Shown piece by piece: positions 1-33,831 of a stretch of DNA of 33,831 bases. Under the pieces are notes generated by a model. It saw only the letters and a list, made by a program, of their open reading frames with translations. It was not told where the DNA came from and did not search any database. Origin of the DNA: a virus (lineage: Duplodnaviria; Heunggongvirae; Uroviricota; Caudoviricetes); the IMG/VR virus record IMGVR_UViG_2681813321_000006; one strand, 5' to 3'. Within the stretch, counting starts at the first letter, position 1. Each line of letters begins with the position of its first letter. A program made the translations under genes and the position numbers.

Positions 1-147
1 TTTTTTTACGCACTGCGGTTAATGATTTCATGGATAGCGTCCACCATATTTGGTGTCCACTATTCTCTCAGGAATTTCAGGATCTGCCAGACGGTGCTGA
101 GACGACGCTTACTTTTCTTTTTGTGAATAGAAGTATCTGTCCATTTA

Positions 148-864
148 TCAATCTCCAAAAGCAATCCAGTAAGCAAAAGGATTTACTCCTTGCTCAGTCA
201 CAGATGACATCAGGGAAAATTGCGATGGTGAAACAGGTAATGCTGCAAAACTAACCATTGTTGACACACCTGACCGTGCATTATCGTACGATGCAACAAC
301 ACAATAATTGGTATTGCTGAAAGATATCGGCAGGGTGATATTTACAGGTGAGCCTAATGGCCCTGATGCTGATATTCCCATTTGAATGATGGTTCCATCA
401 GGCAATTTTCTCCAGCGATTAGAACTCGGATTTCTTTTCCAGGCAGACATATCCGGTATCTGATTTTCTCCTGTACCCACATCCCTTTTCGCCGCTTCTC
501 CCAAACCAAGGTTTTCGAGAGCCGTTTGCACAGTGCCATCCGATTTGATATCGCCAAACGGATTCTTGCGGCTCAGGTATTCAACAGCAAACCCCGATCC
601 CAGCAATTCAACAAAACCGGGCAGATCACCATTATCAAGCACATCCCGTTGCGTTTTGTCACTTACAAACTGGGCCAGAGCTGCAGCAATAAAGCTGGCC
701 TGTCGAATGGCTTTGTTCACCTGCGCACTGGATGCTTTCCCTGCTGTAAATCCGGATAAAAGCGCAGGCAACGCTTCCCATTCCTCCTGCGACATAACAT
801 TGGCATTTCGATCAGTTGCAAACGCTTTAAAGTCATTTTTCGCCATCAGAGTAATACTCCCCAT
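148..864 (-). CDS. Tail fibre-like protein (short, putative receptor-binding protein)
   Basis: 238-aa ORF, last gene of the baseplate/tail operon. Motif [23 protein letters not shown] resembles conserved tail-fibre motifs (recollection). Ser/Thr/Asn-rich C-terminus. Alternative ATG at 846 overlaps the upstream stop (TGATG). Confidence 0.45.
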
Positions 865-1526
865 GCTCCTACATCAAAACCACTGATGAATTCGTTATCC
901 ATATCAAAACCAAAAAATTTTGAGCCTTCCGATGGGGTTTCCACCGAAGGAGTTTCAATGCCCCCCGCCCATACCCCGGCGGCTTTTACTGTGAGATACC
1001 CCTGTTTAATTGCCGCAATTAACTCACGCGATACATCTGAAATATCAGTATCAGGAAAGACCCAGACCGATATCGTCATGTCCTGGTTATCGACTATCTG
1101 CATTCGCAGCCCGGATCCTGCTGTTGCCGCGTCAAGAATTGCCGGAAGCGAATCATTCCGTCCGTCCCAGTTATTAATCGCAATCTTCGCTTTAAGGATG
1201 ACACGATAAGTTTCATCGCTGAGGTACATGTATCCGGAATCAGGATCGTATGGTCCCTGCCATACACCCTGATCATATCCAAGCCCGTCGGTATCCCAGC
1301 TGAAATAAACACCTGAGATAGGCTGGCTGACAACACGGCTACGTCCGATCCACAATCCCAGAATGTCAAGTTGCACACCAACCGCAGAGTCAATATCAAA
1401 TGCAGTAATCAGCCCTCTGGTGGCCGCCGCAACATCAATAAGCGGCCGGGTCATCAGATCAACATGTGCAAGAAATTTAGGTTTGGTGGCGTGGTAGTTC
1501 GTGATTAGTTCGGTGTATTTGCTCAT
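846..1526 (-). CDS. Baseplate/tail protein (P2 gpI / Mu gp48-like position)
   Basis: 226-aa ORF directly after the J-like baseplate gene; 4-nt overlap with it. Call is from gene order and size only. Confidence 0.4.
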
Positions 1527-2722
1527 GACTCCACCGTTATAACGATATTTTCCGGGGTACAGGACGCAGATTCGTTGTATCTGATATCAATGTTTGATGA
1601 CGACAAAGCCCCCGGAGATTTCCCAATCGTCAGTTCCTGAATATCGTAATAGCGTGCATTCCCGCCACTCACCACGCCAAGATTCGCCGGTGAGTAAATG
1701 CGACTTAAAAGGACCGAATCACCAATCATCAGACTATTGATATAGTCGGAAATAGCCTGCTGGATCTGCTGCCCTATCTGTGAGGTATAACCCGTAAAAA
1801 CTTTTAATTTAATCCGGGCATAAACAGGCACATCACTGGAACGCGAGAATTTGATTACATGGGGATTGCCGTATTTATCCGGAACCGTAACGGATGTTGT
1901 ACCGTGAGTGGCTGTCCCCTGGCCTTTATTCCCTCTGATAGCCTGAGCAATATCCATCACATCACCGCCATCCACAATTACAGCAACAGAGTGTGGCGGT
2001 AACCCGTTACCGTCCTCCGAACCAGTATCGTTTTCATAGAGTTTGTGGCGGGTTACACCGGTAACATTAGAAACAGCACCATCCAGTGCTTCAAATGGGG
2101 TTATTGATGGCAACGCAACACTTTGCGACTGGCGGATACGTAACTCCGCATCAGTTTCTGCCGGAGAGCCAACAGTAGCCGCAGCAGGATTAGTTACCGA
2201 AACCCAGCCACGGGTTGGCGTATTAATTTCAGTGATAGTTCCAGCCAGCGCCGCCACTGCACCACTGACGGAACATGTTGCGGTCGCCATCACTGTACCA
2301 TCCACGCCGACCACCACTGAAGCAGGCAAACGCCATATCACACTATTACTGTCTTTCACGCTGCCATTAATGATGGTTGTTCCGGCAGTTCCTGTAAGAA
2401 GCAAATCAACCGTAGAATTCGTCGCGCCTTTACGTGAAATACCATTTATTTTCACGTTACTGGTCAGTGCGGCCCCATAGCCGGTTGCCGGTGAAAAACA
2501 GTTGTAGACAGTTATCGCAGTATTATTGGCATCATGAATCGCCAGCGCCATCAGAGCCACCATCTGGCCGTCTTTACTATCCGGTTCGAGGTAGGCATCA
2601 CTGCCATAAATCTGCTGAAAATAGCTAATCAGGGTGCTGAGTATCGTCTGATAATCAGGCGCACTGATCCCCTCCGCGGTTACCTTTGCAGATAAACCGA
2701 GAGAATCAAGGTTCAGAGCCAT
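1523..2722 (-). CDS. Baseplate J-like wedge protein
   Basis: 399-aa ORF between a gpW-like and a gpI-like ORF; stop/start overlaps with both neighbours. Size and order typical of baseplate J family. Confidence 0.55.
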   Translation of the reverse strand: MALNLDSLGLSAKVTAEGISAPDYQTILSTLISYFQQIYGSDAYLEPDSKDGQMVALMALAIHDANNTAITVYNCFSPATGYGAALTSNVKINGISRKGATNSTVDLLLTGTAGTTIINGSVKDSNSVIWRLPASVVVGVDGTVMATATCSVSGAVAALAGTITEINTPTRGWVSVTNPAAATVGSPAETDAELRIRQSQSVALPSITPFEALDGAVSNVTGVTRHKLYENDTGSEDGNGLPPHSVAVIVDGGDVMDIAQAIRGNKGQGTATHGTTSVTVPDKYGNPHVIKFSRSSDVPVYARIKLKVFTGYTSQIGQQIQQAISDYINSLMIGDSVLLSRIYSPANLGVVSGGNARYYDIQELTIGKSPGALSSSNIDIRYNESASCTPENIVITVES

Positions 2723-3075
2723 TACGCCTCCGATTTAACAGTCGTTATTCCATAGAGAGTGTCGATTTCAGCGGAAAACATGACACGTCGGGTCGTGGTA
2801 TCCACCGTCGTATTGAAAGAGAGGATTGATTTAACGCCCCGCGTTTCGAGGATGCGCTTACGGATCGCCAGGTTGTAGGTTTCCGGCTTCTGCTTACCGA
2901 GCACAGACTGGATCCACGGGGTCCCTTCGGTGGTGTCGAGAAACCATTGCCCATACCACAATTCAAATCGCGTTTTTACCGCCTGCGCCACGGCCTCCGG
3001 TGAGTTAATCAGCCAGGTGTCATCACCGCTGCCAAAGGTGTAATCGCCATCGGCGTCTTCACGTCTGTATCGCAT
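2722..3075 (-). CDS. Small baseplate protein (gpW/GP46-like)
   Basis: 117-aa ORF between the spike-like and J-like genes, start/stop coupled with both. Positional call. Confidence 0.45.
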   Translation of the reverse strand: MRYRREDADGDYTFGSGDDTWLINSPEAVAQAVKTRFELWYGQWFLDTTEGTPWIQSVLGKQKPETYNLAIRKRILETRGVKSILSFNTTVDTTTRRVMFSAEIDTLYGITTVKSEA

Positions 3076-3827
3076 CAGTTTACCCTATCGGTATTGCTTC
3101 CACCGCGCTGAACACCGCCATGAGTGTGCGTATCATCGATTGGCTTGCCGTTAGCCTTCACGCTCCCCAAAAACTCAACAGCACCAGTGATTTTTGAAGC
3201 CACACCAGAAACCACAGACCCCACCATGCCCCCCATCCAGGTTAACAGGCCATGAATGGTTACTTTCTCAGAAAAATCAGCCAGAGGGGCAACCACATCA
3301 AGACCACCCGGAGCGACAATTTTAATTTTCCTGGTATCAGGATTAAGCTCAAAATAGGTGCTGCCGTCATCACTACGCAACTGTGTGGCACTGGTATTAA
3401 TACCGCTAATCCTCCTTGCCTGCGACTGGGGACCGACAATACAAAACGCATCCGATAAATCATGCATTCTGTCATCGACCGTCTCCTGTATCCCGCCACT
3501 CTGCCACCAGAAATCGATGCAGCGATCGGCAAAAATCACCAGGCATTCATCGCCGGCTTTTACCGGGAAAGTTAACGTGCAGCCGCCGCCGCGCGGAAAT
3601 ACCACCGGCACATCCACCAGCAGCGGGTAATTTTTGGTTACGCGGTTGCCGTCGTTGTCGGTTTCAACCGAACGAATAGCAGGCTGCACAACCGCCGTCA
3701 CCGCGTCAGGATCGAATGACTGAACGATGCCAGGCAAAGCGACGCGGATCTGGTTCTTTGTGGTTTCCCGCTCGGATTTGAATGTTTCGGCAAGGTCGCC
3801 GCTACGAGTCTGGTCTGATATGGCCAT
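3075..3827 (-). CDS. Baseplate spike / gpV-like protein
   Basis: ORF-track start 3860 is a TTG inside a terminator hairpin. First ATG at 3827 is preceded by AGGAG (3836-3840). Motifs LPGIVQSFDPD, VPVVFPRGGG, GDECLVIFADRCID fit the N-terminal domain of phage baseplate spike (gpV/Gp138_N-like) proteins (recollection). Confidence 0.6.
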   Translation of the reverse strand: MAISDQTRSGDLAETFKSERETTKNQIRVALPGIVQSFDPDAVTAVVQPAIRSVETDNDGNRVTKNYPLLVDVPVVFPRGGGCTLTFPVKAGDECLVIFADRCIDFWWQSGGIQETVDDRMHDLSDAFCIVGPQSQARRISGINTSATQLRSDDGSTYFELNPDTRKIKIVAPGGLDVVAPLADFSEKVTIHGLLTWMGGMVGSVVSGVASKITGAVEFLGSVKANGKPIDDTHTHGGVQRGGSNTDRVN

Positions 3828-3841
3828 TTGATAAACTCCTG

Positions 3842-3868
3842 AAAACAAAAAACCCGCCAAGTGGCGGG
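3842..3868 (-). terminator. Intrinsic terminator (minus strand) at the distal edge of the AT-rich baseplate moron
   Basis: Minus-strand RNA reads CCCGCC-ACUU-GGCGGG followed by UUUUUUGUUUU: 6-bp GC stem, 4-nt loop, U-tract. Confidence 0.6.
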
Positions 3869-3889
3869 GCTACAGGAACAACTCTAAGT

Positions 3890-4060
3890 TTATTTTTTCT
3901 GTTTAAAATTGTCCAACTCAGGTTCTTTAACGCTTTCTGTCATGTAATCCAATCCACCAAAAGGTACTTCAAGCATTATACTGCTTTCATAATCAGCCAT
4001 GGATTGCTCTGCTTGCGTTAGCTTGCTTTGCTGTGAGTTGTCATTATTTGATGTTGTCAT
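3890..4060 (-). CDS. Small hypothetical ORF (56 aa) in the AT-rich moron
   Basis: ATG at 4060, TAA at 3890-3892; weak AAGG upstream. Same frame as the upstream membrane ORF, separated by a TAG. Below the ORF-track size cutoff; may be non-coding. Confidence 0.15.
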   Translation of the reverse strand: MTTSNNDNSQQSKLTQAEQSMADYESSIMLEVPFGGLDYMTESVKEPELDNFKQKK

Positions 4061-4063
4061 CAA

Positions 4064-4618
4064 CTATGCCTTATTTATCAAAAGAAAAGTAACCGATAAT
4101 ATGAAAAAACCGAAAGATAACGCAATTCCTTCAAAAAGATAACGAGCGTAAACTGCCTTTTCTTTATGAAGACTTTCGATCAATTCAACAGCTTTACCAT
4201 ACTGAAACATATGGTATCTAAGCGTTTTAATTTTATCACCGTAAAATAAAAAATCATGCTCTTCTTTTCGCTTATGAATAGGCATTTTTGGTATATCTTT
4301 CAGTCCCCAAGTACGCCATAGGAAAAAAAAGCACATAACAATACAAACAAAGCACAGATATGCACAAAGTATAGATAATGTTAAAAACCAATTACTCTTT
4401 AGCCCACTTTTGAAATCAACAGTCCCAAATACAGCCAGTAGAGCAGAGGTTTCTACAGCTAAAATAGCAAGAAGGTAGTTAACTTTGTCCTCAAGACGAC
4501 GATATGTTGATTTTGCTTCCTCATATCTATCTTTATAATATGACGAAATAAAATCAGCGCCTATAGTCTCAATTGCCTTTTGTTCTTCTGTTGTATCTAT
4601 TGACGAACGCTTGCTCAT
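4064..4618 (-). CDS. AT-rich moron membrane protein (about 3 TM helices), unknown function
   Basis: 184-aa ORF. N-terminal charged helical region, then hydrophobic segments LLAILAVETSALLAVFGTV, WFLTLSILCAYLCFVCIVMCFFFLW and IALSFGFFILSVTFLLI. About 30% G+C by hand count versus over 50% in flanking tail genes. Confidence 0.55.
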   Translation of the reverse strand: MSKRSSIDTTEEQKAIETIGADFISSYYKDRYEEAKSTYRRLEDKVNYLLAILAVETSALLAVFGTVDFKSGLKSNWFLTLSILCAYLCFVCIVMCFFFLWRTWGLKDIPKMPIHKRKEEHDFLFYGDKIKTLRYHMFQYGKAVELIESLHKEKAVYARYLFEGIALSFGFFILSVTFLLINKA

Positions 4619-4625
4619 TTCTCAA

Positions 4626-4973
4626 TCAACCAACAACTTTCTTACACGGGAAAGAGCCAATAATTTTCGGAGCATCCATGCTGTTCTGCAACAACTGGAC
4701 GTTCAGGAAACGCGTTTTAGTGCCAGGTCGATGGATATACTCGAACCCATAATTGTTGCCATCTTTGGCAGGCATCAGGTCCATTTTGATCTGCATGCCT
4801 GTACCGTCTTTACCCAACATTTTTACTTTTTGGGACGTTACTGTTTCGCCATTGATTTTAAATAATGAATCAGGGATCGCATCCATACGAAAGTTGCCGC
4901 ATTGCATCGTTATGGTGTTTGCACTTACACCAACAGACACTAATGCCAGCAATGAAAATATCCATCGTTTCAT
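4626..4973 (-). CDS. AT-rich moron secreted/periplasmic protein with signal peptide
   Basis: Refined start ATG 4971-4973 preceded by GAGGA. Product MKRWIFSLLALVSVGVSA|NTI has a classic Sec signal peptide (AXA-like site VSA); two Cys in the mature part. Track start 5054 would overlap the upstream gene. Confidence 0.55.
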   Translation of the reverse strand: MKRWIFSLLALVSVGVSANTITMQCGNFRMDAIPDSLFKINGETVTSQKVKMLGKDGTGMQIKMDLMPAKDGNNYGFEYIHRPGTKTRFLNVQLLQNSMDAPKIIGSFPCKKVVG

Positions 4974-4975
4974 TT

Positions 4976-6040
4976 CTATAATCCTCTCTGAAAAGCAGTG
5001 CTGGATGGCATATCCTGCGCACCGCGCGCTTCGCACATCATATCCATGTACCACGCCTGGCCCCTTGTATCGCCAGTGTACATAATCCCGCGCACAATAT
5101 AAACGCCATCCGTTGCGATGCTGGCAGGCTGCGATGTGGTGCCGCTTAGCGTAATATTTCCGTCCGTGTTCTGGTCGGTGATCTGCCCACCAGCCATAGC
5201 GATATCGTTGTTCGACAACGCGGTGCGATATACGGAAGCCTGATCCAGTTGAATGAGCCCATTAACCCGGATGTTCGGATTAATAAGCGCGCGAACGTTT
5301 ACGCCGTTGCCGATGGTCTGCTGCGGCATGCCAATAAGCCCGGTAGCGCTGTTGAGCACAATCGCTTCGTGAACATATTCATTATTCGCCACCATCTGGC
5401 GCTGACCGTCTACGAATTGCCATGTTGCGCCACATTGCCCGGCTACGTTATCCATTAGATGCCGCGTCATGCCAAAGAGCACCCGCCCCCGGGGGAATAC
5501 AGTAGCAGGCATTTCAGGCGTCAGGCCTTCGGTCGCACCTTTGGCTTCGAAGTCTTTCATCAGCGCACGGTTCACATCAGCGACCGTGTAACCGGCAGCC
5601 AGCGTCTGTGAGGTTATACTGGTGGCAAAAGCCAGATCAGTATCTGCTGCCTGAATCAGGACGTAGGAATCAACCGGACTGTCTTTTCCTGTAACCGAGT
5701 AGCGAATTTCACCGCTGAAAATCAGTCCGTAGTTGCGGCCATCACTCTGGCCCACGTCCGCCGCATCAACCTCCCGCACGATCCCGACGTCGCTTGCCGA
5801 CACCTCCGGCGCGATACCGTCGTAACCCGCAATCAGACGCACTTTCGAAAACTCCCGCCCGGTGATTCGGTTCACAGTATCTGCCGAGAGGTTATAAATT
5901 TTGATAGTCCCTACCCGGGACGCGCTGCTGATGTTGAACCAGTCGATCGTAAAGGTCACTTTAAAATCACTTAGCTCAATTCCCTGACCGTTCCCGTCCA
6001 CAAGCTGCAGCTCGAAATGTCTCATCCAGTTCTGTGACAT
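4976..6040 (-). CDS. Baseplate hub-like tail protein (P2 gpD / Mu gpP position)
   Basis: 354-aa ORF between the post-tape-measure ORFs and the spike gene. Positional/size call only. Confidence 0.4.
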   Translation of the reverse strand: MSQNWMRHFELQLVDGNGQGIELSDFKVTFTIDWFNISSASRVGTIKIYNLSADTVNRITGREFSKVRLIAGYDGIAPEVSASDVGIVREVDAADVGQSDGRNYGLIFSGEIRYSVTGKDSPVDSYVLIQAADTDLAFATSITSQTLAAGYTVADVNRALMKDFEAKGATEGLTPEMPATVFPRGRVLFGMTRHLMDNVAGQCGATWQFVDGQRQMVANNEYVHEAIVLNSATGLIGMPQQTIGNGVNVRALINPNIRVNGLIQLDQASVYRTALSNNDIAMAGGQITDQNTDGNITLSGTTSQPASIATDGVYIVRGIMYTGDTRGQAWYMDMMCEARGAQDMPSSTAFQRGL

Positions 6041-25708: not shown

Positions 25709-25828
25709 TGCTTTCACCTCATACAATTTTAGTGGTATTTAGCAACAACAAATGAGGTTTGTCAAATACAACAAAAATTGTTTTTAATGTGGGTATACAC
25801 ATTAATACAACCCAGAAGGACTAATCCC
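25709..25828. promoter_or_regulatory. Divergent cro/cI control region with operator-like repeats
   Basis: 120-bp AT-rich intergenic region. Perfect inverted repeat TTAATGTG-ggtata-CACATTAA at 25784-25805. ATACAA recurs at about 25721, 25766 and 25805. Confidence 0.5.
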
Positions 25829-26452
25829 ATGTCTCTCGCAGCCCGTTTTAAAGCACGTCGTTTGGAATTAGGAATGACTCAAGTGGAAGTAGCGAATTCT
25901 GCAGGGGTTAGCCAACAATCCATAGAATCCATCGAAAGTGGACGAACCAGAAAGCCACGCAATCTTCTGGATCTGGCTAAGGCCTTGAAATGTAGCCCAG
26001 ACTGGCTACTGAACGGTAAAAATATTATGCCTCTCGCGGAGATAAGTACCAGACGCATACCTATATTAAGTTACGTTCAGGCAGGAGAGCTTACAGAAGC
26101 AAGAGACATAACAGATCTGACAGGGGAATTTGAATATATTTTGGCAGACTCTGACATTCCAGAAACATGCTTCGCATTACGTATTGATGGCGACAGCATG
26201 CAACCAGAGTTTAAAGAAGGAGACATTGTTATCATCGATCCTGATCTATGTCCTGCACCAGGGGAGTTTGTTGTCGCCAAAAACGACGGTCACGAAGCTA
26301 CATTTAAAAAATACCGTCCATTAGGAATCGGCATCGACGACTTTGAATTAATCCCCCTAAATCCTGATTACCCTATTTTTCGTAGTGCAGATATGAACTT
26401 ACAGATCATAGGTGTAATGATCGAACACCGTATTTACCGCCGTAAACGTTAG
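25829..26452 (+). CDS. CI-like repressor (HTH plus S24/LexA-type autopeptidase domain)
   Basis: Refined ATG 25829 with GAAGGA upstream. N-terminal HTH MTQVEVANSAGVSQQSIESIESG; C-terminal GDSM (catalytic Ser) and downstream Lys (VVAKNDGHEATFKKY) as in lambda CI/LexA. Confidence 0.8.
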   Translation: MSLAARFKARRLELGMTQVEVANSAGVSQQSIESIESGRTRKPRNLLDLAKALKCSPDWLLNGKNIMPLAEISTRRIPILSYVQAGELTEARDITDLTGEFEYILADSDIPETCFALRIDGDSMQPEFKEGDIVIIDPDLCPAPGEFVVAKNDGHEATFKKYRPLGIGIDDFELIPLNPDYPIFRSADMNLQIIGVMIEHRIYRRKR

Positions 26453-26471
26453 TATTCCCACCGTAAATATC

Positions 26472-26491
26472 GGGAGGCGTAACAGCCTCCC
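26472..26491 (+). terminator. Stem-loop downstream of cI (terminator-like, weak U-tract)
   Basis: GGGAGGC-gtaaca-GCCTCCC, 7-bp perfect stem, 20 nt after the cI stop; followed by TTACCCCATTTG rather than a clean T-run. Confidence 0.4.
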
Positions 26492-26498
26492 TTACCCC

Positions 26499-26518
26499 AT
26501 TTGTAAAGTCTTACAAAT
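26499..26518. promoter_or_regulatory. 20-bp palindromic operator-like site ATTTGTAA-agtc-TTACAAAT
   Basis: 8-bp perfect inverted arms, 4-bp spacer, immediately after the cI-distal hairpin and upstream of the rightward replication operon. A related inverted repeat ATACAA-N6-TTGTAT lies at about 26587-26604. Confidence 0.45.
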
Positions 26519-26774
26519 TAAATTCACTTAAATATCAATAAAGTAGTATTCACACCCCACAAAATACCACGTTTGCGGTTTACACAATACAACTCAAATT
26601 GTATCTTTAGCCACAAGTCGAACGGCGCGACTCTAAACCATGCGTCGGGACCGTGGCGGGACAGGATGTCGGCAATACGGGTCAGTAAGTTCCCTTTGGG
26701 GTGCGGCGAAGCACTGCCTACTGATACAAGTCGAAGCCGCCGAACCACCAAAGTGAACTGAATGAGGAAACGGC

Positions 26775-26969
26775 GTGAAAACATATAAACCGCTCAAAGG
26801 TGAATGCCCTGCTTGCCAAACACAGCTTCAGACACCAAAGCCAAAACGATACCAAATCAACGAATGTTATGAGCACTGCCCTGGATGTGGTGCTTTCCTG
26901 CATACCATTGCAACGCACTGGCGTGTCCGCTTCAACCTTGTGGTACCACGTACGCACAATACCAACTGA
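26775..26969 (+). CDS. Small zinc-ribbon-like protein
   Basis: 64-aa ORF, GTG start with GAGGA upstream. Two CxxC pairs (CPAC, CPGC) about 20 residues apart; followed by an intrinsic terminator. Confidence 0.4.
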   Translation: MKTYKPLKGECPACQTQLQTPKPKRYQINECYEHCPGCGAFLHTIATHWRVRFNLVVPRTHNTN

Positions 26970-27000
26970 ATCATCCATGTAATTGCTGTGTGTAGTCTTT

Positions 27001-27026
27001 GCCCGCCGCAAGTGACGGGCTTTTTT
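27001..27026 (+). terminator. Intrinsic terminator after the zinc-ribbon ORF
   Basis: GCCCG...CGGGC stem followed by TTTTTTAT. Confidence 0.5.
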
Positions 27027-27085
27027 ATGTCTGAAAGCGCACTCGCAACAGCGCGCTCCCCGATATGAAAAAAGGAATACAACCG

Positions 27086-29453: not shown

Positions 29454-30002
29454 ATGAAACTGAAGCTGAACAATGTTCGTCTGGCCTTCCCGTCTCTGTT
29501 TGAAGCTAAAACTGTAAACGGCGAAGGCGATCCGCGTTTCTCCGCAGTATTTTTAATGTCTCCCAAACACCCACAACTGGAAGAAATCCGTAAAGCTATG
29601 AAGCAGGTAGCGAAGGAAAAATGGGGAGAGAAGTGGGAGCCCATTTATAACCAGCTGGAGAAAAAACTCAATCTGTGCCTGCATGATGGTGATGAAAAAG
29701 CAGAGTATGAAGGCTTCCCCGGTAATTTCTTCCTGAATGCTGCTAACAAAGCGCGCCCAGCTGTTCTTGATCGCGATCGTTCGCCACTTATTCAGGCTGA
29801 CGGACGTCCCTATGCAGGGTGCTATGTAAACGCCGTTATCGATATCTGGGCACAGGACAATAATTTCGGTAAACGCATTAATGCCTCACTCGGCGGAGTC
29901 CAGTTCCTGCGAGACGGCGATGCATTCGCTGGCGGCGGAGTGGCAAGCGCTGACGATTTCGACGATATCAGCGAAGGTGCTGATGCTGAAGCACTAATTT
30001 AA
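29454..30002 (+). CDS. DUF2815-like phage protein (putative ssDNA-binding/replication accessory)
   Basis: 182 aa; N-terminal MKLKLNNVRLAFPSLFE... resembles DUF2815 proteins that accompany DUF2800 nucleases and family-A polymerases (recollection). Confidence 0.5.
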   Translation: MKLKLNNVRLAFPSLFEAKTVNGEGDPRFSAVFLMSPKHPQLEEIRKAMKQVAKEKWGEKWEPIYNQLEKKLNLCLHDGDEKAEYEGFPGNFFLNAANKARPAVLDRDRSPLIQADGRPYAGCYVNAVIDIWAQDNNFGKRINASLGGVQFLRDGDAFAGGGVASADDFDDISEGADAEALI

Positions 30003-30017
30003 CCCTACTTCATAGAC

Positions 30018-30036
30018 GCCCGGTTAAACACCGGGC
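30018..30036. other. Hairpin between convergent genes (no U-tract)
   Basis: GCCCGG-ttaaaca-CCGGGC, 6-bp stem, between the DUF2815-like gene (+) and the AT-rich membrane gene (-). Confidence 0.4.
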
Positions 30037-30054
30037 TACTGATTAGGCGTATAA

Positions 30055-30684
30055 TCACTCAGGAATCTTAATCTTTCTCAATTCTTTATTTAGTTCACAG
30101 ATCTTTTTCTTAGACGGGAAAGTATCATACATCCAAAAACCAACAGTCTCTAAAACTATTATCATAACCATATACACAAGATAATTTAAAAGGCCTTCAT
30201 TTTGCCCTATGGAAATAATGCAGATAATAGAAAAAAGGGTAAACAGCACAAAACACAGAAAGGAAAACAGACGACTAATAATAAATAAAAAACCTGAAAA
30301 ATCAACATTAATAAAAAACACTCCGTTATCTTTCTCTATATAATTCTGAAGCTTAATCAACTGATTTATATACTGTCTTTTTTCTAATCTATTGCAAATG
30401 TAAATAACATCTCTTCGGTTATAAGATGATTGCAATTTCAGCGCATCACGAATAATTTTATCATTTATTCTTTTTTCTATGGCACTCTTATCCTCCTCAT
30501 CCAGATAACGTTCATACTTAACTAAATATAAAATTAACTTCTTAACATATTTAGGCTCTTTATACTTATAATTAAAAATGATCTTTCTTATCCAGACTCC
30601 CATAACAATCAAACATGAAAAAATATATCCAGCTATTTTCTCCAGATGCTCTGTATGGTCAATCAAGTATTGGATCATATGCAT
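30055..30684 (-). CDS. AT-rich multi-pass membrane protein inserted antisense in the replication operon (moron; candidate exclusion/abortive-infection effector)
   Basis: 209-aa ORF at about 28-30% G+C (hand count) versus about 60% in the flanking polymerase gene. Hydrophobic segments IAGYIFSCLIVMGVWI, FLFIISRLFSFLCFVLFTLFSIICIISI, LLNYLVYMVMIIVLETVGFW; Lys/Tyr-rich cytoplasmic region. Opposite strand to both neighbours. Confidence 0.55.
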   Translation of the reverse strand: MHMIQYLIDHTEHLEKIAGYIFSCLIVMGVWIRKIIFNYKYKEPKYVKKLILYLVKYERYLDEEDKSAIEKRINDKIIRDALKLQSSYNRRDVIYICNRLEKRQYINQLIKLQNYIEKDNGVFFINVDFSGFLFIISRLFSFLCFVLFTLFSIICIISIGQNEGLLNYLVYMVMIIVLETVGFWMYDTFPSKKKICELNKELRKIKIPE

Positions 30685-30730
30685 AATTAATCTTTTAATC
30701 AGTTAATAGAATAAAAACCAAGGTAAACAC

Positions 30731-32794
30731 ATGTCCAATATACTATGGGGCGACCTGGAAACCTATTGCGAAATCCCTATTACGAACGGTACCCATGCGT
30801 ATGCCGAAGGCGTTGAAGTGATGCTTTTCGCATGGGCTATCAACGACGGGCCAGTAAACGTGTGGGATATCACTGCCGGTGGTGGTATTCCACACGGCTT
30901 ATACGAAGCAATCGCAGACCCTGAAACCCTGCTTTATTTCCATAACTCTCACTTCGACCGCACCGTTCTGCGTTATGCAATGCCGCGCCTGGCACCGCCA
31001 GTCGAACGTTGGCGCGACACAATGGTGCAGGCGCTGGCGCACGGTCTCCCGGGGTCTCTGGGGGAACTCTGCGAAGTACTAGGCGTCCCGCAAGACAAAG
31101 CGAAGGACAAAGAAGGTAAAGCGCTGATCCAGCTGTTCTGTAAGCCACGCCCGAAAAACAGCAAACTGCGCCGGGCCACCAGCAAAACCCACCCGGAAGA
31201 ATGGCGGCGCTTTGTTGCTTACGCCGGACTGGATATCGAGGCAATGCGCGAAGTCTATAAACGTCTGCCGAAGTGGAATTATCAGGGGACAGAACTGGCG
31301 CTCTGGCATCGTGATCAGCAGATCAATGACCGGGGCGTCTGCATGGACGTGGAACTCGCACGCGCTGCGATCGACGCGGTAGACCAGGAACAAAAGCGCC
31401 TGGCAAAGCGTACACAGGAAATGACTGATGGCGAAGTGCAGGCAGCCACACAACGAGACGCGTTGATTAAGCACATTGTTGAATCCTACGGTGTGGAGCT
31501 ACCAGACATGCAACGCAGTACTCTGGAACGTCGTATTGCCGACCCCGATTTACCATCTGCCGTGAAAGAACTGCTGGCTATCCGCCTGCAGGCCAGTACT
31601 ACCAGCACCAGTAAATACAAGGCACTGATGAAAGGCGTAAGCCACGACGGGCGCTTACGCGGTACGCTACAGTTCTGCGGGGCGTCACGTACCGGTCGTT
31701 GGGCCGGACGGCTATTCCAGCCCCAGAACCTTCCCCGCCCTTCACTAAAACAGGAACAAATAGACGAAGGCATCGAAGCACTGAAAGCCGGATGTGCAGA
31801 CCTGCTGTTTGACAATATCATGGAACTAACCAGTTCAGCGTTACGTGGCTGCATTATCGCGCCAACAGGCAAAAAGCTGGTGGTAAGTGACTTGTCGAAC
31901 ATTGAAGGCCGTATGCTGGCATGGCTGGCGGGAGAAGAATGGAAACTGAATGCATTCAGAGAGTACGACGCCGGAACGGGTCCGGACTTATATAAACTGG
32001 CGTATGCAAAAGCTTTCGATATTGCACCAGATGATGTTGATAAACACATGCGTCAGATCGGTAAAGTCATGGAACTCGGTCTGGGTTATGGTGGTGGTGT
32101 GTCGGCCTTCATCACTTTTGCACTGGTTTACGGTCTCGATCTCGACGAGCTGGCGAACGCCGCACTACCAAACATTCCCCGCGATGTTATCCGCGAGGCG
32201 AAAAGCTGGTACGACGAATCGGTTAAACGCAAGTCAACCTACGGGCTTTCTGAACGGGTATTTATCGCCTGCGACTCACTTAAACGTCTCTGGCGCCGGG
32301 CGCATCCCGCGACCTGTGATTTCTGGTACGAACTGGAGCGCACCGTCCGCACTGCAATCGCCACACCGCAAAAAACATTGTATTGCGGTTATCTTAAAAT
32401 CCGCCGCGATGGCGCGTGGCTGCGCATACAGCTACCATCCGGACGCGCTGTATGCTACCCGTCTCCGGTTATCGAAAAAGGGAATATCACCTACATGGGG
32501 GTTAACTCTTATTCGCGTAAATGGCAACGACTCAAAACCTACGGCGGAAAGCTGGTGGAGAACATCACCCAGGCGGCCGCCCGCGACATTCTGGCCGGAA
32601 ACATGCCGCTTATCGAAGATGCCGGTTACAGCATTGTGCTGACGGTACACGACGAGGTGATCACCGAAGCACCTGACACAGAAGATTTCAACGATAAAGC
32701 GCTTTCCGCGCTTCTCTCCACTGACCCCGAATGGGCGCCCGATATCCCACTGAACGCTGGCGGTTTTGAGGCGTACCACTACAAAAAAGATTGA
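30731..32794 (+). CDS. Family A DNA polymerase with N-terminal 3'-5' exonuclease domain
   Basis: 687 aa. Exo motifs: GDLETYCE (DxE), [17 protein letters not shown]. Pol motifs: [15 protein letters not shown] (motif A-like), [16 protein letters not shown] (motif B, K...YG), LTVHDEV (motif C HDE). AAGG RBS. Confidence 0.85.
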
Positions 32795-32858: not shown

Positions 32859-33620
32859 ATGCAGGAACTAACTGAAATGCCGATCACCTATCCATACCCG
32901 AGAGAAACTTTTCCTGACTTTTTGAGGGAGTGTGGGTTCACCAATTTTTCCCACGAACAGCGTGAGACTTGTGACTGCTATCGTTTAACGAATGGCGTAA
33001 TTGTTAACCTTTACACCACCCGGACCATTCAGTTTCAAGGTAACCCTCAAGAACGTCCCAATGTTGAAACTGCAATAATGACCCATTTAGGAACGCCGCC
33101 CACGGCAACACCACTAGCCGTAGAACAGCCATCTGAGCTCCCCAAAAAGATATTCATTGTTCACGGCCATGACCATACTGCAAAGGAGCAACTTGAGCTA
33201 ATCCTTCATAAACTTGGATTACCAGACCATTTCATTTTGCAGAATACGGGAGGGACTGGACTCACCATTATTGAAGAGCTTGAACGTGAAATTGGGCAAG
33301 GACAAACTGCTACCCGTTTCGGGATTGTTCTTTTGACACCTGATGATATGGGATACTCAAAGCGCGCCGGTGAAGCAGAAATCCAACCCCGCGCAAGACA
33401 GAACGTTGTACTCGAGATGGGTATGCTTCTTTCGTCCTTAGGGCGCAGCAATGTAGCAATCCTTCAGAAACAGCACCTAGAACAGCCTTCTGATGCTAAC
33501 GGGATTTTGTATCTGAATTTCAACGACCATGTACGTGAAACAGTTCCTCGTCTAGTGCAACGGTTACAAAATTCTGGTTTCGAATTTACACAAGCTCAAA
33601 TAGCTAACGCTTCCTCGTAA
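32859..33620 (+). CDS. Two-domain protein: unknown Cys-containing N-terminal domain plus C-terminal TIR-like (COG4271-type) domain
   Basis: 253 aa, AAAGGAA RBS. C-terminal region KKIFIVHGHD...RFGIVLLTPDD...RARQNVVLEMGML matches my recollection of the TIR-like nucleotide-binding family signature. N-terminal about 95 aa with ETCDCYR. Assignment not verified by search. Confidence 0.5.
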   Translation: MQELTEMPITYPYPRETFPDFLRECGFTNFSHEQRETCDCYRLTNGVIVNLYTTRTIQFQGNPQERPNVETAIMTHLGTPPTATPLAVEQPSELPKKIFIVHGHDHTAKEQLELILHKLGLPDHFILQNTGGTGLTIIEELEREIGQGQTATRFGIVLLTPDDMGYSKRAGEAEIQPRARQNVVLEMGMLLSSLGRSNVAILQKQHLEQPSDANGILYLNFNDHVRETVPRLVQRLQNSGFEFTQAQIANASS

Positions 33621-33668: not shown

Positions 33669-33747
33669 GGGAATAAAAACCCTATGTCATTTAAATACCG
33701 GGACAGTCCGCTTTATTGTAAGCGACTCGTCAGAACCGTATTGATAT

Positions 33748-33831
33748 TTACTGAGAGCTCAGATCAACTTTCCAGGGCAACAGATCGCGTACCCGGTTTG
33801 CCGGCCAGTCCTGGATATGTTCAATGACGTA
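33748..33831 (-). CDS. 3' end of an unidentified minus-strand gene running off the window
   Basis: Open frame from the window edge to TAA at 33748-33750; visible C-terminus ...YVIEHIQDWPANRVRDLLPWKVDLSSQ. Too short to assign. Confidence 0.2.
   Translation of the reverse strand, partial: YVIEHIQDWPANRVRDLLPWKVDLSSQ

Follow-up and report, generated by a model that had tools for sequence, protein, structure and literature searches.

The virus record IMGVR_UViG_2681813321_000006 (Caudoviricetes) comprises 33,831 bp of DNA (hereafter, the window), in which we analyzed a small AT-rich gene that lies antisense between two genes of a phage replication module. A chromosomal prophage of Escherichia coli FDAARGOS_1059 matches the region at 100% identity, the prophages of E. 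coli IAI1, O55:H7 CB9615 and others match it at more than 99%, and the induced phages vB_EcoM-606R2, vB_EcoM-611R5 and vB_EcoM-689R2 show 99.3% identity to it. Its structural module resembles that of the contractile-tailed, temperate Salmonella phage SEN34; the whole stretch is a SEN34-like myovirus prophage of E. coli. The gene in question (30055-30684, minus strand) is a 630-nt open reading frame (ORF) with an ATG start, encoding a 209-aa inner-membrane protein with three predicted transmembrane (TM) segments, and RefSeq annotates an identical gene as a hypothetical protein (WP_000551017.1). On its left lies the gene of a DUF2815/Enc34-type single-stranded DNA-binding protein (29454-30002, plus strand; Pfam PF10991 Enc34_ssDNA-bd, E=7.6e-44), and on its right the gene of a family-A DNA polymerase (30731-32794, plus strand; Pfam DNA_pol_A, E=3.4e-14, in addition to the RefSeq annotation), both of which belong to the phage backbone. 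An initial annotation, made from the sequence of the window, had described this 209-aa ORF as antisense to both neighbors and separated from the polymerase gene by a shared, divergent 46-bp spacer (30685-30730), and both features are present as described.

The cassette and its borders

The gene differs clearly from the surrounding genome in base composition. The G+C content of the ORF is 0.289 (0.299 over the interval 30003-30730), in line with the 28-30% estimated initially, whereas the window as a whole averages 0.502 and the DUF2815 and polymerase genes have 0.492 and 0.543, respectively; the value of about 60% given earlier for the polymerase gene was too high. The ORF region is the lowest-GC 630-bp stretch in the 33.8 kb (minimum 0.279 at 30085), and in a 630-bp scan (mean 0.5035, standard deviation 0.048) it falls about 4.5 standard deviations below the mean. 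Moreover, G+C at third codon positions is 0.31 in the ORF vs. 0.57 in the polymerase gene.

Sharp compositional borders had been proposed at 30003 and 30730. The right one is indeed sharp (approximately 30730-30750), whereas by composition the left one lies nearer 30050, since a GC-rich hairpin raises the G+C content of positions 30001-30050 to 52%. Comparison with related prophages places the borders exactly: homology to prophages with other cargo ends at 30036 and restarts at 30731, the polymerase ATG, which delimits an inserted AT-rich cassette of 694 bp (30037-30730).

The hairpin itself (30018-30036, plus strand), with its 7-bp GC stem and 5-nt loop, is real (z = -2.7 to -3.5 vs. shuffled sequences), but it is not part of the cassette. 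In our alignment of the left junction, the same hairpin is followed by TTTT(T)G in strains B379 and 89-3156, where it forms an intrinsic terminator, while in the window and in strain Rb-50 it is joined directly to the cargo and the T-run is replaced; in the window no T-run adjoins the hairpin on either strand. Because the relatives share the hairpin and the T-run was lost at the cassette junction, we regard it as the stem-loop of the backbone terminator that follows the DUF2815 gene, and the cassette as starting at 30037. Thus, the insertion of cargo may change read-through into the polymerase gene. No intrinsic terminator of the cassette's own was found, the sole hairpin being that of the backbone. 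An equivalent backbone terminator site was also noted at another of the compared loci (L027:3917-3945).

The slot and its contents

The position between the DUF2815 and polymerase genes is a slot in which related prophages carry different genes. Our survey covered 5426 complete E. coli genomes, 159 of which carry one or both slot flanks, and reading the slot in sampled strains with flanks revealed at least six different contents. The slot is empty in B379, where the 76 bp between the DUF2815 and polymerase genes contain only the hairpin and T-run terminator. In Rb-50 it is occupied by a 493-aa, ThsA-type SIR2 protein that matches the PADLOC candidate PDC-S25 (E=3.9e-157), and in BH100 by Nmad5 alone. 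M-17 carries an intact Nmad5 gene followed by an antisense gene for a 229-aa soluble protein that adjoins the polymerase gene; in EH2252, which lacks the DUF2815 gene, an IS1-truncated Nmad5 remnant accompanies the antisense gene for a 229-aa soluble protein. In CAU16175 and UPEC 26-1, Nmad5 is found together with an antisense gene for an 89-aa protein with two TM segments. Finally, an antisense gene for a 199-aa protein fills the slot of 13E0725 (13 genomes in all), and another such gene lies next to a BRO-N gene in 89-3156. Hence, the initial proposal that the gene is a horizontally acquired moron was borne out by the empty site in B379, the other cargo in relatives and the AT-rich islands that the family forms in other mobile elements. 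The slot is a cargo hotspot, and the gene is horizontally acquired cargo that is dispensable to the phage.

The two antisense 199-aa proteins, which are 68% identical to each other, proved to be remote homologs of the 209-aa protein (hhalign 96.6%, E=6.6e-10, over 190 columns, and 97.2%, E=4e-11, against the family profile). Three divergent alleles of a single family are thus known from the slot, each of them antisense and with its start 26-46 bp from the polymerase ATG. The 209-aa allele is present in 67 of the 5426 genomes and a 199-aa allele in 13, so that both groups together are carried by 80 genomes (~1.5%), including O55:H7 and O103:H2 strains and commensal lineages. Among the E. coli copies of the 209-aa gene, the ratio of nonsynonymous to synonymous divergence (dN/dS) is 0.23-0.81, vs. 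0-0.10 for the DUF2815 gene and 0.06-0.21 for the polymerase gene. The synonymous divergence of the cassette (dS 0.017-0.06) is lower than that of the flanks (up to 0.19), which suggests that the cassette spread by recombination among backbones that had already diverged.

Two more slots of the replication module vary in the same way, one directly after the polymerase gene and one between the VRR-NUC and helicase genes; B379 is empty at all three. In the window, the second slot holds a TIR-domain gene (32859-33620, plus strand; Pfam CAP12-PCTIR_TIR, E=2.9e-31) that matches the PADLOC candidate PDC-S35 (E=6.8e-109), and relatives carry there a BRO-N gene, an antisense ATPase gene with a weak DrmA-like match, a hypothetical gene with YfbU, or nothing. 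A functional coupling of the membrane protein gene with this downstream TIR gene was considered and rejected, as each occurs without the other. The third slot lies about 3.6 kb past the right end of the window and encodes a 265-aa multi-TM protein (L001:10450-11247, minus strand); its equivalents at other loci encode proteins of 195 aa (multi-TM; L006:7970-8557), 310 aa (L025:6835-7767) and 106 aa (L005:9263-9583). The cargo of this slot consists of antisense hypothetical genes that differ by strain and have a G+C content of 0.33-0.45 where measured; the 265-, 195- and 106-aa proteins gave no match in PADLOC, nor did the 265-aa protein in Pfam.

These features are those of two known kinds of element. 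The concept of the moron, an extra transcription unit with a promoter and terminator that let it be expressed while the prophage is repressed, reportedly goes back to Hendrix and colleagues, with HK97 gp15 and P2 Orf30 as examples. Like a moron, our gene is additional, separating two genes that a relative carries side by side (76 bp apart in B379, with other cargo elsewhere), has an atypical composition and is dispensable; moreover, one member of its family sits exactly in the gpS|gpV moron slot of P2. It differs in that a promoter of its own is only putative and that the one hairpin nearby belongs to the backbone. P2 Orf30, an occupant of the gpS|gpV type of slot, was compared and is not homologous. 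The second kind is that of the P2/P4 defense hotspots of temperate phages and satellites, which Rousset and colleagues are said to have described in 2022. As in those hotspots, conserved core genes border a position whose cargo is mostly AT-rich, can be exchanged and includes recognized defense candidates, here SIR2/PDC-S25 and, in the adjacent slot, TIR/PDC-S35, whereas the backbone is that of a SEN34-like myovirus and the slot is inside the replication module. Our literature search found no description of this hotspot, and the three replication-module cargo slots of SEN34-like prophages appear to be previously undescribed.

The protein and its relatives

Hydropathy, family-wide positive-inside charge counts and an AlphaFold2 model agree on the topology of the 209-aa protein. 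The model, built with a 14-sequence alignment, reached a predicted local distance difference test score (pLDDT) of 75.7 and a predicted template modeling score of 0.58, and the single-sequence model was poor (pLDDT 55). The protein is predicted to adopt an N-out/C-in topology, with TM1, a cytoplasmic helical domain of about 95 aa, a TM2-TM3 hairpin and a basic C-tail. TM1 (residues 17-33; 30586-30636, minus strand, as are all parts of the protein; AlphaFold2 helix 11-36) follows an N-tail of 16 aa that is acidic and probably faces the periplasm according to the prediction. The Lys/Tyr-rich cytoplasmic domain (residues 34-129; 30298-30585; charge +21/-14) would comprise four helices (45-56, 63-82, 90-99 and 103-111) and end in a beta-hairpin (strands 116-125); it contains the conserved motifs YL.KY..YLS..DK.YIK..I..EIM, along with a conserved L54, and the whole protein has 21 Lys and 15 Tyr residues. 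The TM2-TM3 helical hairpin (residues 130-159 and 165-186; 30127-30297; AlphaFold2 helices 132-160 and 165-188) is predicted to have a periplasmic turn of 4-6 residues, and a Glu inside TM3 is found in 8 of 11 aligned members and is absent from the 199-aa alleles. The basic, predicted cytoplasmic C-tail (residues 187-209; 30058-30126) carries the most conserved motif of the family, P-x4-I-x3-N-x-E-L-x-K, in which N199 and L202 do not vary at all and I195, E201 and K204 hardly vary. Of the layout proposed initially, the N-terminal TM helix and the Lys/Tyr-rich region were thus confirmed, and the "two or three" C-terminal helices are two according to both hydropathy and AlphaFold2.

Searches for homologs revealed a small family. 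A word-indexed search of 5.8 billion proteins returned near-identical copies only, phmmer run exhaustively over 1.84 billion representatives gave ten matches, and a profile re-search added only members from Xenorhabdus; tblastn found only the three vB_EcoM phages in the phage collection and nothing in the plasmid collection. The protein also matches phrog_10579, a group of unknown function (E=2.9e-108). The family, with proteins of about 210 aa, is confined to Enterobacterales, namely Escherichia and other Enterobacteriaceae, Rahnella/Rouxiella, Serratia, Pantoea/Erwiniaceae and Xenorhabdus. Distant full-length homologs share 23-43% identity and align from residues 1-4, which favors Met1 as the start over Met28, used in the PHROG model. 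All members but one are AT-rich (28-32% G+C) in surroundings of 40-57% G+C, and the Shine-Dalgarno sequences of the homologs are strong.

No neighboring gene is conserved across the contexts in which the family occurs. The Rahnella homolog occupies the gpS|gpV slot of a P2-like prophage, and that of an Erwiniaceae strain lies in a lambdoid prophage just upstream of Q, where it adjoins a dGTPase defense gene (E=5.5e-144) and genes for a type II cytosine methyltransferase and an HNH endonuclease. This Erwiniaceae defense cluster (L015:1-7743), which precedes the family homolog and the Q antiterminator gene, also contains GAPS4-like PD-(D/E)XK genes and a gene for an unannotated 424-aa protein. 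Another homolog is found on an integrative and conjugative element (ICE), one lies antisense between the PAPS-reductase and RecT genes of a phage contig, and that of X. hominickii adjoins phage remnants. In Xenorhabdus indica (L022:8001-8639), X. innexi (L028:4001-4639) and X. cabanillasii (L029:4001-4639), the gene lies between an SLT-domain gene and thrS and has a G+C content of about 30%. This chromosomal position upstream of thrS is outside any prophage and is fixed in at least three species. The dN/dS of these orthologs is 0.07-0.12 at dS up to 1.5; here, a gene that is mobile elsewhere has been kept by vertical descent over a long time. Given the conserved homologs, the purifying selection and the lack of a shared neighbor, we conclude that the protein is real, functional and stand-alone.

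Possible functions

The closest parallel that we found is SieA of phage P22, a superinfection-exclusion protein of the inner membrane with three predicted TM segments, which is encoded by a single, prophage-expressed gene and blocks DNA injection by related phages; the SieA family, which comprises types A-C, has FxRYPxEAxxFNK as its conserved motif in the cytoplasmic C-terminus (Leavitt et al., 2024, PMC10883804). Both genes are AT-rich and antisense to their surroundings, sieA to gene 16 (G+C 0.337 vs. 0.499 in gene 16). Both proteins have the same predicted order of parts: TM1 leads into a basic, helical portion in the cytoplasm, after which come the TM2-TM3 hairpin and, at the end, a short tail that is again basic. 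Both appear to act alone as the product of a single gene. In addition, the best-conserved motif lies in the cytoplasmic C-tail in both cases (FNKEF.K in SieA, LNKEL.K here), the tails reading FNKEFIKTIK and LNKELRKIKI, respectively. The differences are also considerable: the cytoplasmic domain spans about 95 aa here, compared with about 50 aa in SieA; FxRYPxEAxxFNK is not present as such, and the C-tail motif of our family shares with it only a hydrophobic-N-K-E-hydrophobic-x-K core; and the carrier is a contractile-tailed myovirus without the P22-type ejection proteins. The likeness to SieA is a resemblance in design, not demonstrated membership.

The initial annotation had pointed to superinfection exclusion or abortive infection, as is common for small AT-rich membrane proteins of prophages, and this suggestion is plausible. 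We propose that a promoter of its own could drive the gene against the direction of the replication operon, so that the protein would be made in the lysogen. At the inner membrane it would then guard its host cell, and with it the prophage, against phages that arrive from outside. The likeliest mechanism would be interference with genome delivery across the membrane, the protein being a functional analog, and not a detectable homolog, of P22 SieA. We assign a probability of roughly 0.4 to such a SieA-like block by a stand-alone membrane protein in the lysogen. Its three elements, namely expression during lysogeny, the anti-phage role and the injection block, are what we infer, the anti-phage role from the SIR2 candidate in the slot, the homolog beside dGTPase and restriction-modification genes, and the SieA-like layout.

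A number of observations weigh against this proposal. Homology to SieA was not detected by hhalign, either between the family alignment and a 10-sequence SieA alignment (0.2%) or between single sequences (0.2%). Likewise, the initial annotation had recognized no relative of the protein, and our remote homology searches, which included the SLATT, Abi, holin-like and Sie families, agree with it. The best Pfam match among the window protein and its 13 relatives had E=0.0048 (DUF2207_C), and that of the window protein itself E=0.51 (DUF5325). P22 SieA is listed under PF26849 in precomputed annotations, and the Pfam library used here lacks this entry and does not recognize SieA; hence, the Pfam negatives have no bearing on SieA. 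For the same 14 proteins, PADLOC-DB v2.0.0 gave no match other than a weak and unconfirmed one (relative P0010 with PDC-S47, E=4.2e-4, residues 18-94), and NCBIfam gave noise only. No significant hidden Markov model match to SLATT, SieB, Imm, RexB, Abi or holin families was obtained in Pfam or NCBIfam; among PHROGs, a holin match (E=0.37) was not significant and phrog_10579 was the only significant one; a profile search of PDB sequences gave E>1; and fold searches with the model returned generic helical matches only, none of them informative. A literature search on the protein accession, the phage names and the PDC names found nothing, and no expression or phenotype data. The signals for expression are also modest. 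The divergent spacer contains a promoter-like site, TGGACA-18-TATTCT (spacer and site 30685-30737, minus strand; 9 of 12 matches), with a -35 element that overlaps the polymerase ATG, and the region holds 5 sigma-70-like sites where 3.8 +/- 1.9 are expected in shuffled sequences, which is not above chance; as the promoter of the cargo gene, the site is suggestive only. The Shine-Dalgarno sequence of the gene is weak, and AT-rich genes in E. coli are often silenced by H-NS. In the O55:H7 strain DEC5B (L010:3656-4285), the gene is unannotated and carries a nonsense mutation (E63*); this copy is a natural knockout, and the gene is therefore dispensable. Furthermore, the fixed chromosomal site in Xenorhabdus could mean a role in host physiology, and the predictions put nearly all of the soluble mass of the protein in the cytoplasm, a placement that suits a sensor inside the cell, as in abortive infection, no less than it suits a block of injection.

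Possibly, then, the protein is an abortive-infection effector, an account that we consider somewhat unlikely. Its cytoplasmic domain would sense a product or process of the infecting phage, whereupon the TM2-TM3 hairpin would oligomerize and depolarize or permeabilize the inner membrane, so that the cell dies before phage release. The main point in its favor is that the positive-inside rule puts the 96-aa domain and the C-tail in the cytoplasm; the hairpin also suits it, given the short turn, the basic residue with which TM2 begins and the TM3 Glu of most members, although this Glu is missing from the 199-aa alleles. The SIR2 protein found in the slot of another strain (PDC-S25/ThsA-like) belongs to an abortive-infection-type effector family, and the nonsense allele and relaxed dN/dS in E. 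coli (0.23-0.81) are compatible with a costly gene, whereas in Xenorhabdus the gene has been kept for long under strong purifying selection as a lone gene with no visible regulator or antitoxin. Similarly to lambda RexB, SLATT proteins and the TM effectors of CBASS and Pycsar, ours is a small, helical inner-membrane protein encoded on mobile elements near defense genes, but it matches neither these models nor those of Abi proteins, and no partner sensor gene is present here.

An accessory (lysogenic-conversion) membrane protein unrelated to phage defense, acting in envelope physiology, stress tolerance, colonization or the exclusion of conjugative elements, seems unlikely to us. The lack of any defense-family homology, the family member on an ICE and the site upstream of thrS, conserved in at least three Xenorhabdus species at a dN/dS of 0.07-0.12, speak for such a role. 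On the other side, the slot alternates with a SIR2 defense candidate and a TIR gene (PDC-S35) lies 2 kb away, one homolog is found within a cluster of dGTPase, restriction-modification and GAPS4-like genes, and several divergent alleles at one locus are typical of arms-race genes.

A bolder version of the defense hypothesis, which we regard as distinctly improbable, would make the protein the founding example of a single-gene immunity family with a new mechanism, directed against contractile-tailed phages. The cytoplasmic domain of about 95 aa and the C-tail would recognize a component of phage or conjugative DNA entry or of early replication, and would then gate the TM hairpin or block the entry channel, and the three slots would constitute an undescribed defense-hotspot system. 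To our knowledge, no inner-membrane exclusion protein of such a type has been characterized against contractile-tailed phages.

It is highly improbable that the protein serves a phage-intrinsic function, as a membrane anchor of the replisome or a timer of lysis or lysogeny. Its position inside the replication module, between the genes of the single-stranded DNA-binding protein and the polymerase, and that of one homolog between PAPS-reductase and RecT genes would suit this role, but the slot is empty in B379 and filled with unrelated cargo in other prophages, DEC5B carries a nonsense allele, homologs occur in tail-gene and Q-upstream slots, an ICE and the Xenorhabdus chromosome, and the antisense orientation and the foreign composition speak against it as well. 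The reading that the ORF is spurious and merely part of an AT-rich spacer, that it is a pseudogene in decay, or that the stretch is a replication origin rich in A and T, suggested by the few GC-rich stop-free constraints of AT-rich DNA, the weak Shine-Dalgarno sequence and the Met28 start of PHROG models, is effectively refuted by the conservation data, as full-length homologs at 23-43% identity keep the length and architecture, the gene is under purifying selection, the homologs have strong Shine-Dalgarno sequences, and no iterons, tandem repeats, Rfam families or tRNAs were found in the region.

If the proposed protective role proves true, the protein would represent a new and very compact (209-aa, single-gene) family of phage-excluding or defense membrane proteins, present in about 1.5% of complete E. 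coli genomes. The three slots could be mined for defense and counter-defense genes, as they already comprise SIR2/PDC-S25, TIR/PDC-S35, Nmad5 and several unknown membrane proteins; such genes bear on the host range in phage therapy and on the competition between prophages. AT-rich, hypothetical membrane morons are very common in prophages. We present the gene as an interesting candidate and as the marker of an undescribed hotspot: the family is new, but the kind of element that it represents is well known, shows no unprecedented principle and would not surprise a specialist.

A few further features of the window were recorded. A LexA/S24-type repressor gene (25778-26452, plus strand) shares its strand with the genes for replication, and the roughly 600 bp after it (26453-27064) contain no convincing gene; an ANR-family regulator gene begins at the right end of the window (33684-33831, plus strand), marked as frameshifted by RefSeq in the identical prophage. 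A second low-GC island (approximately 3731-4850), in which 400-bp windows fall to 0.33 G+C, contains ORFs without a Pfam match (4064-4618 and 4626-5054, both minus strand). It adjoins a gpV-like spike gene (3075-3860) and genes for tail fibers and may represent a further cassette, either of cargo or for host range.

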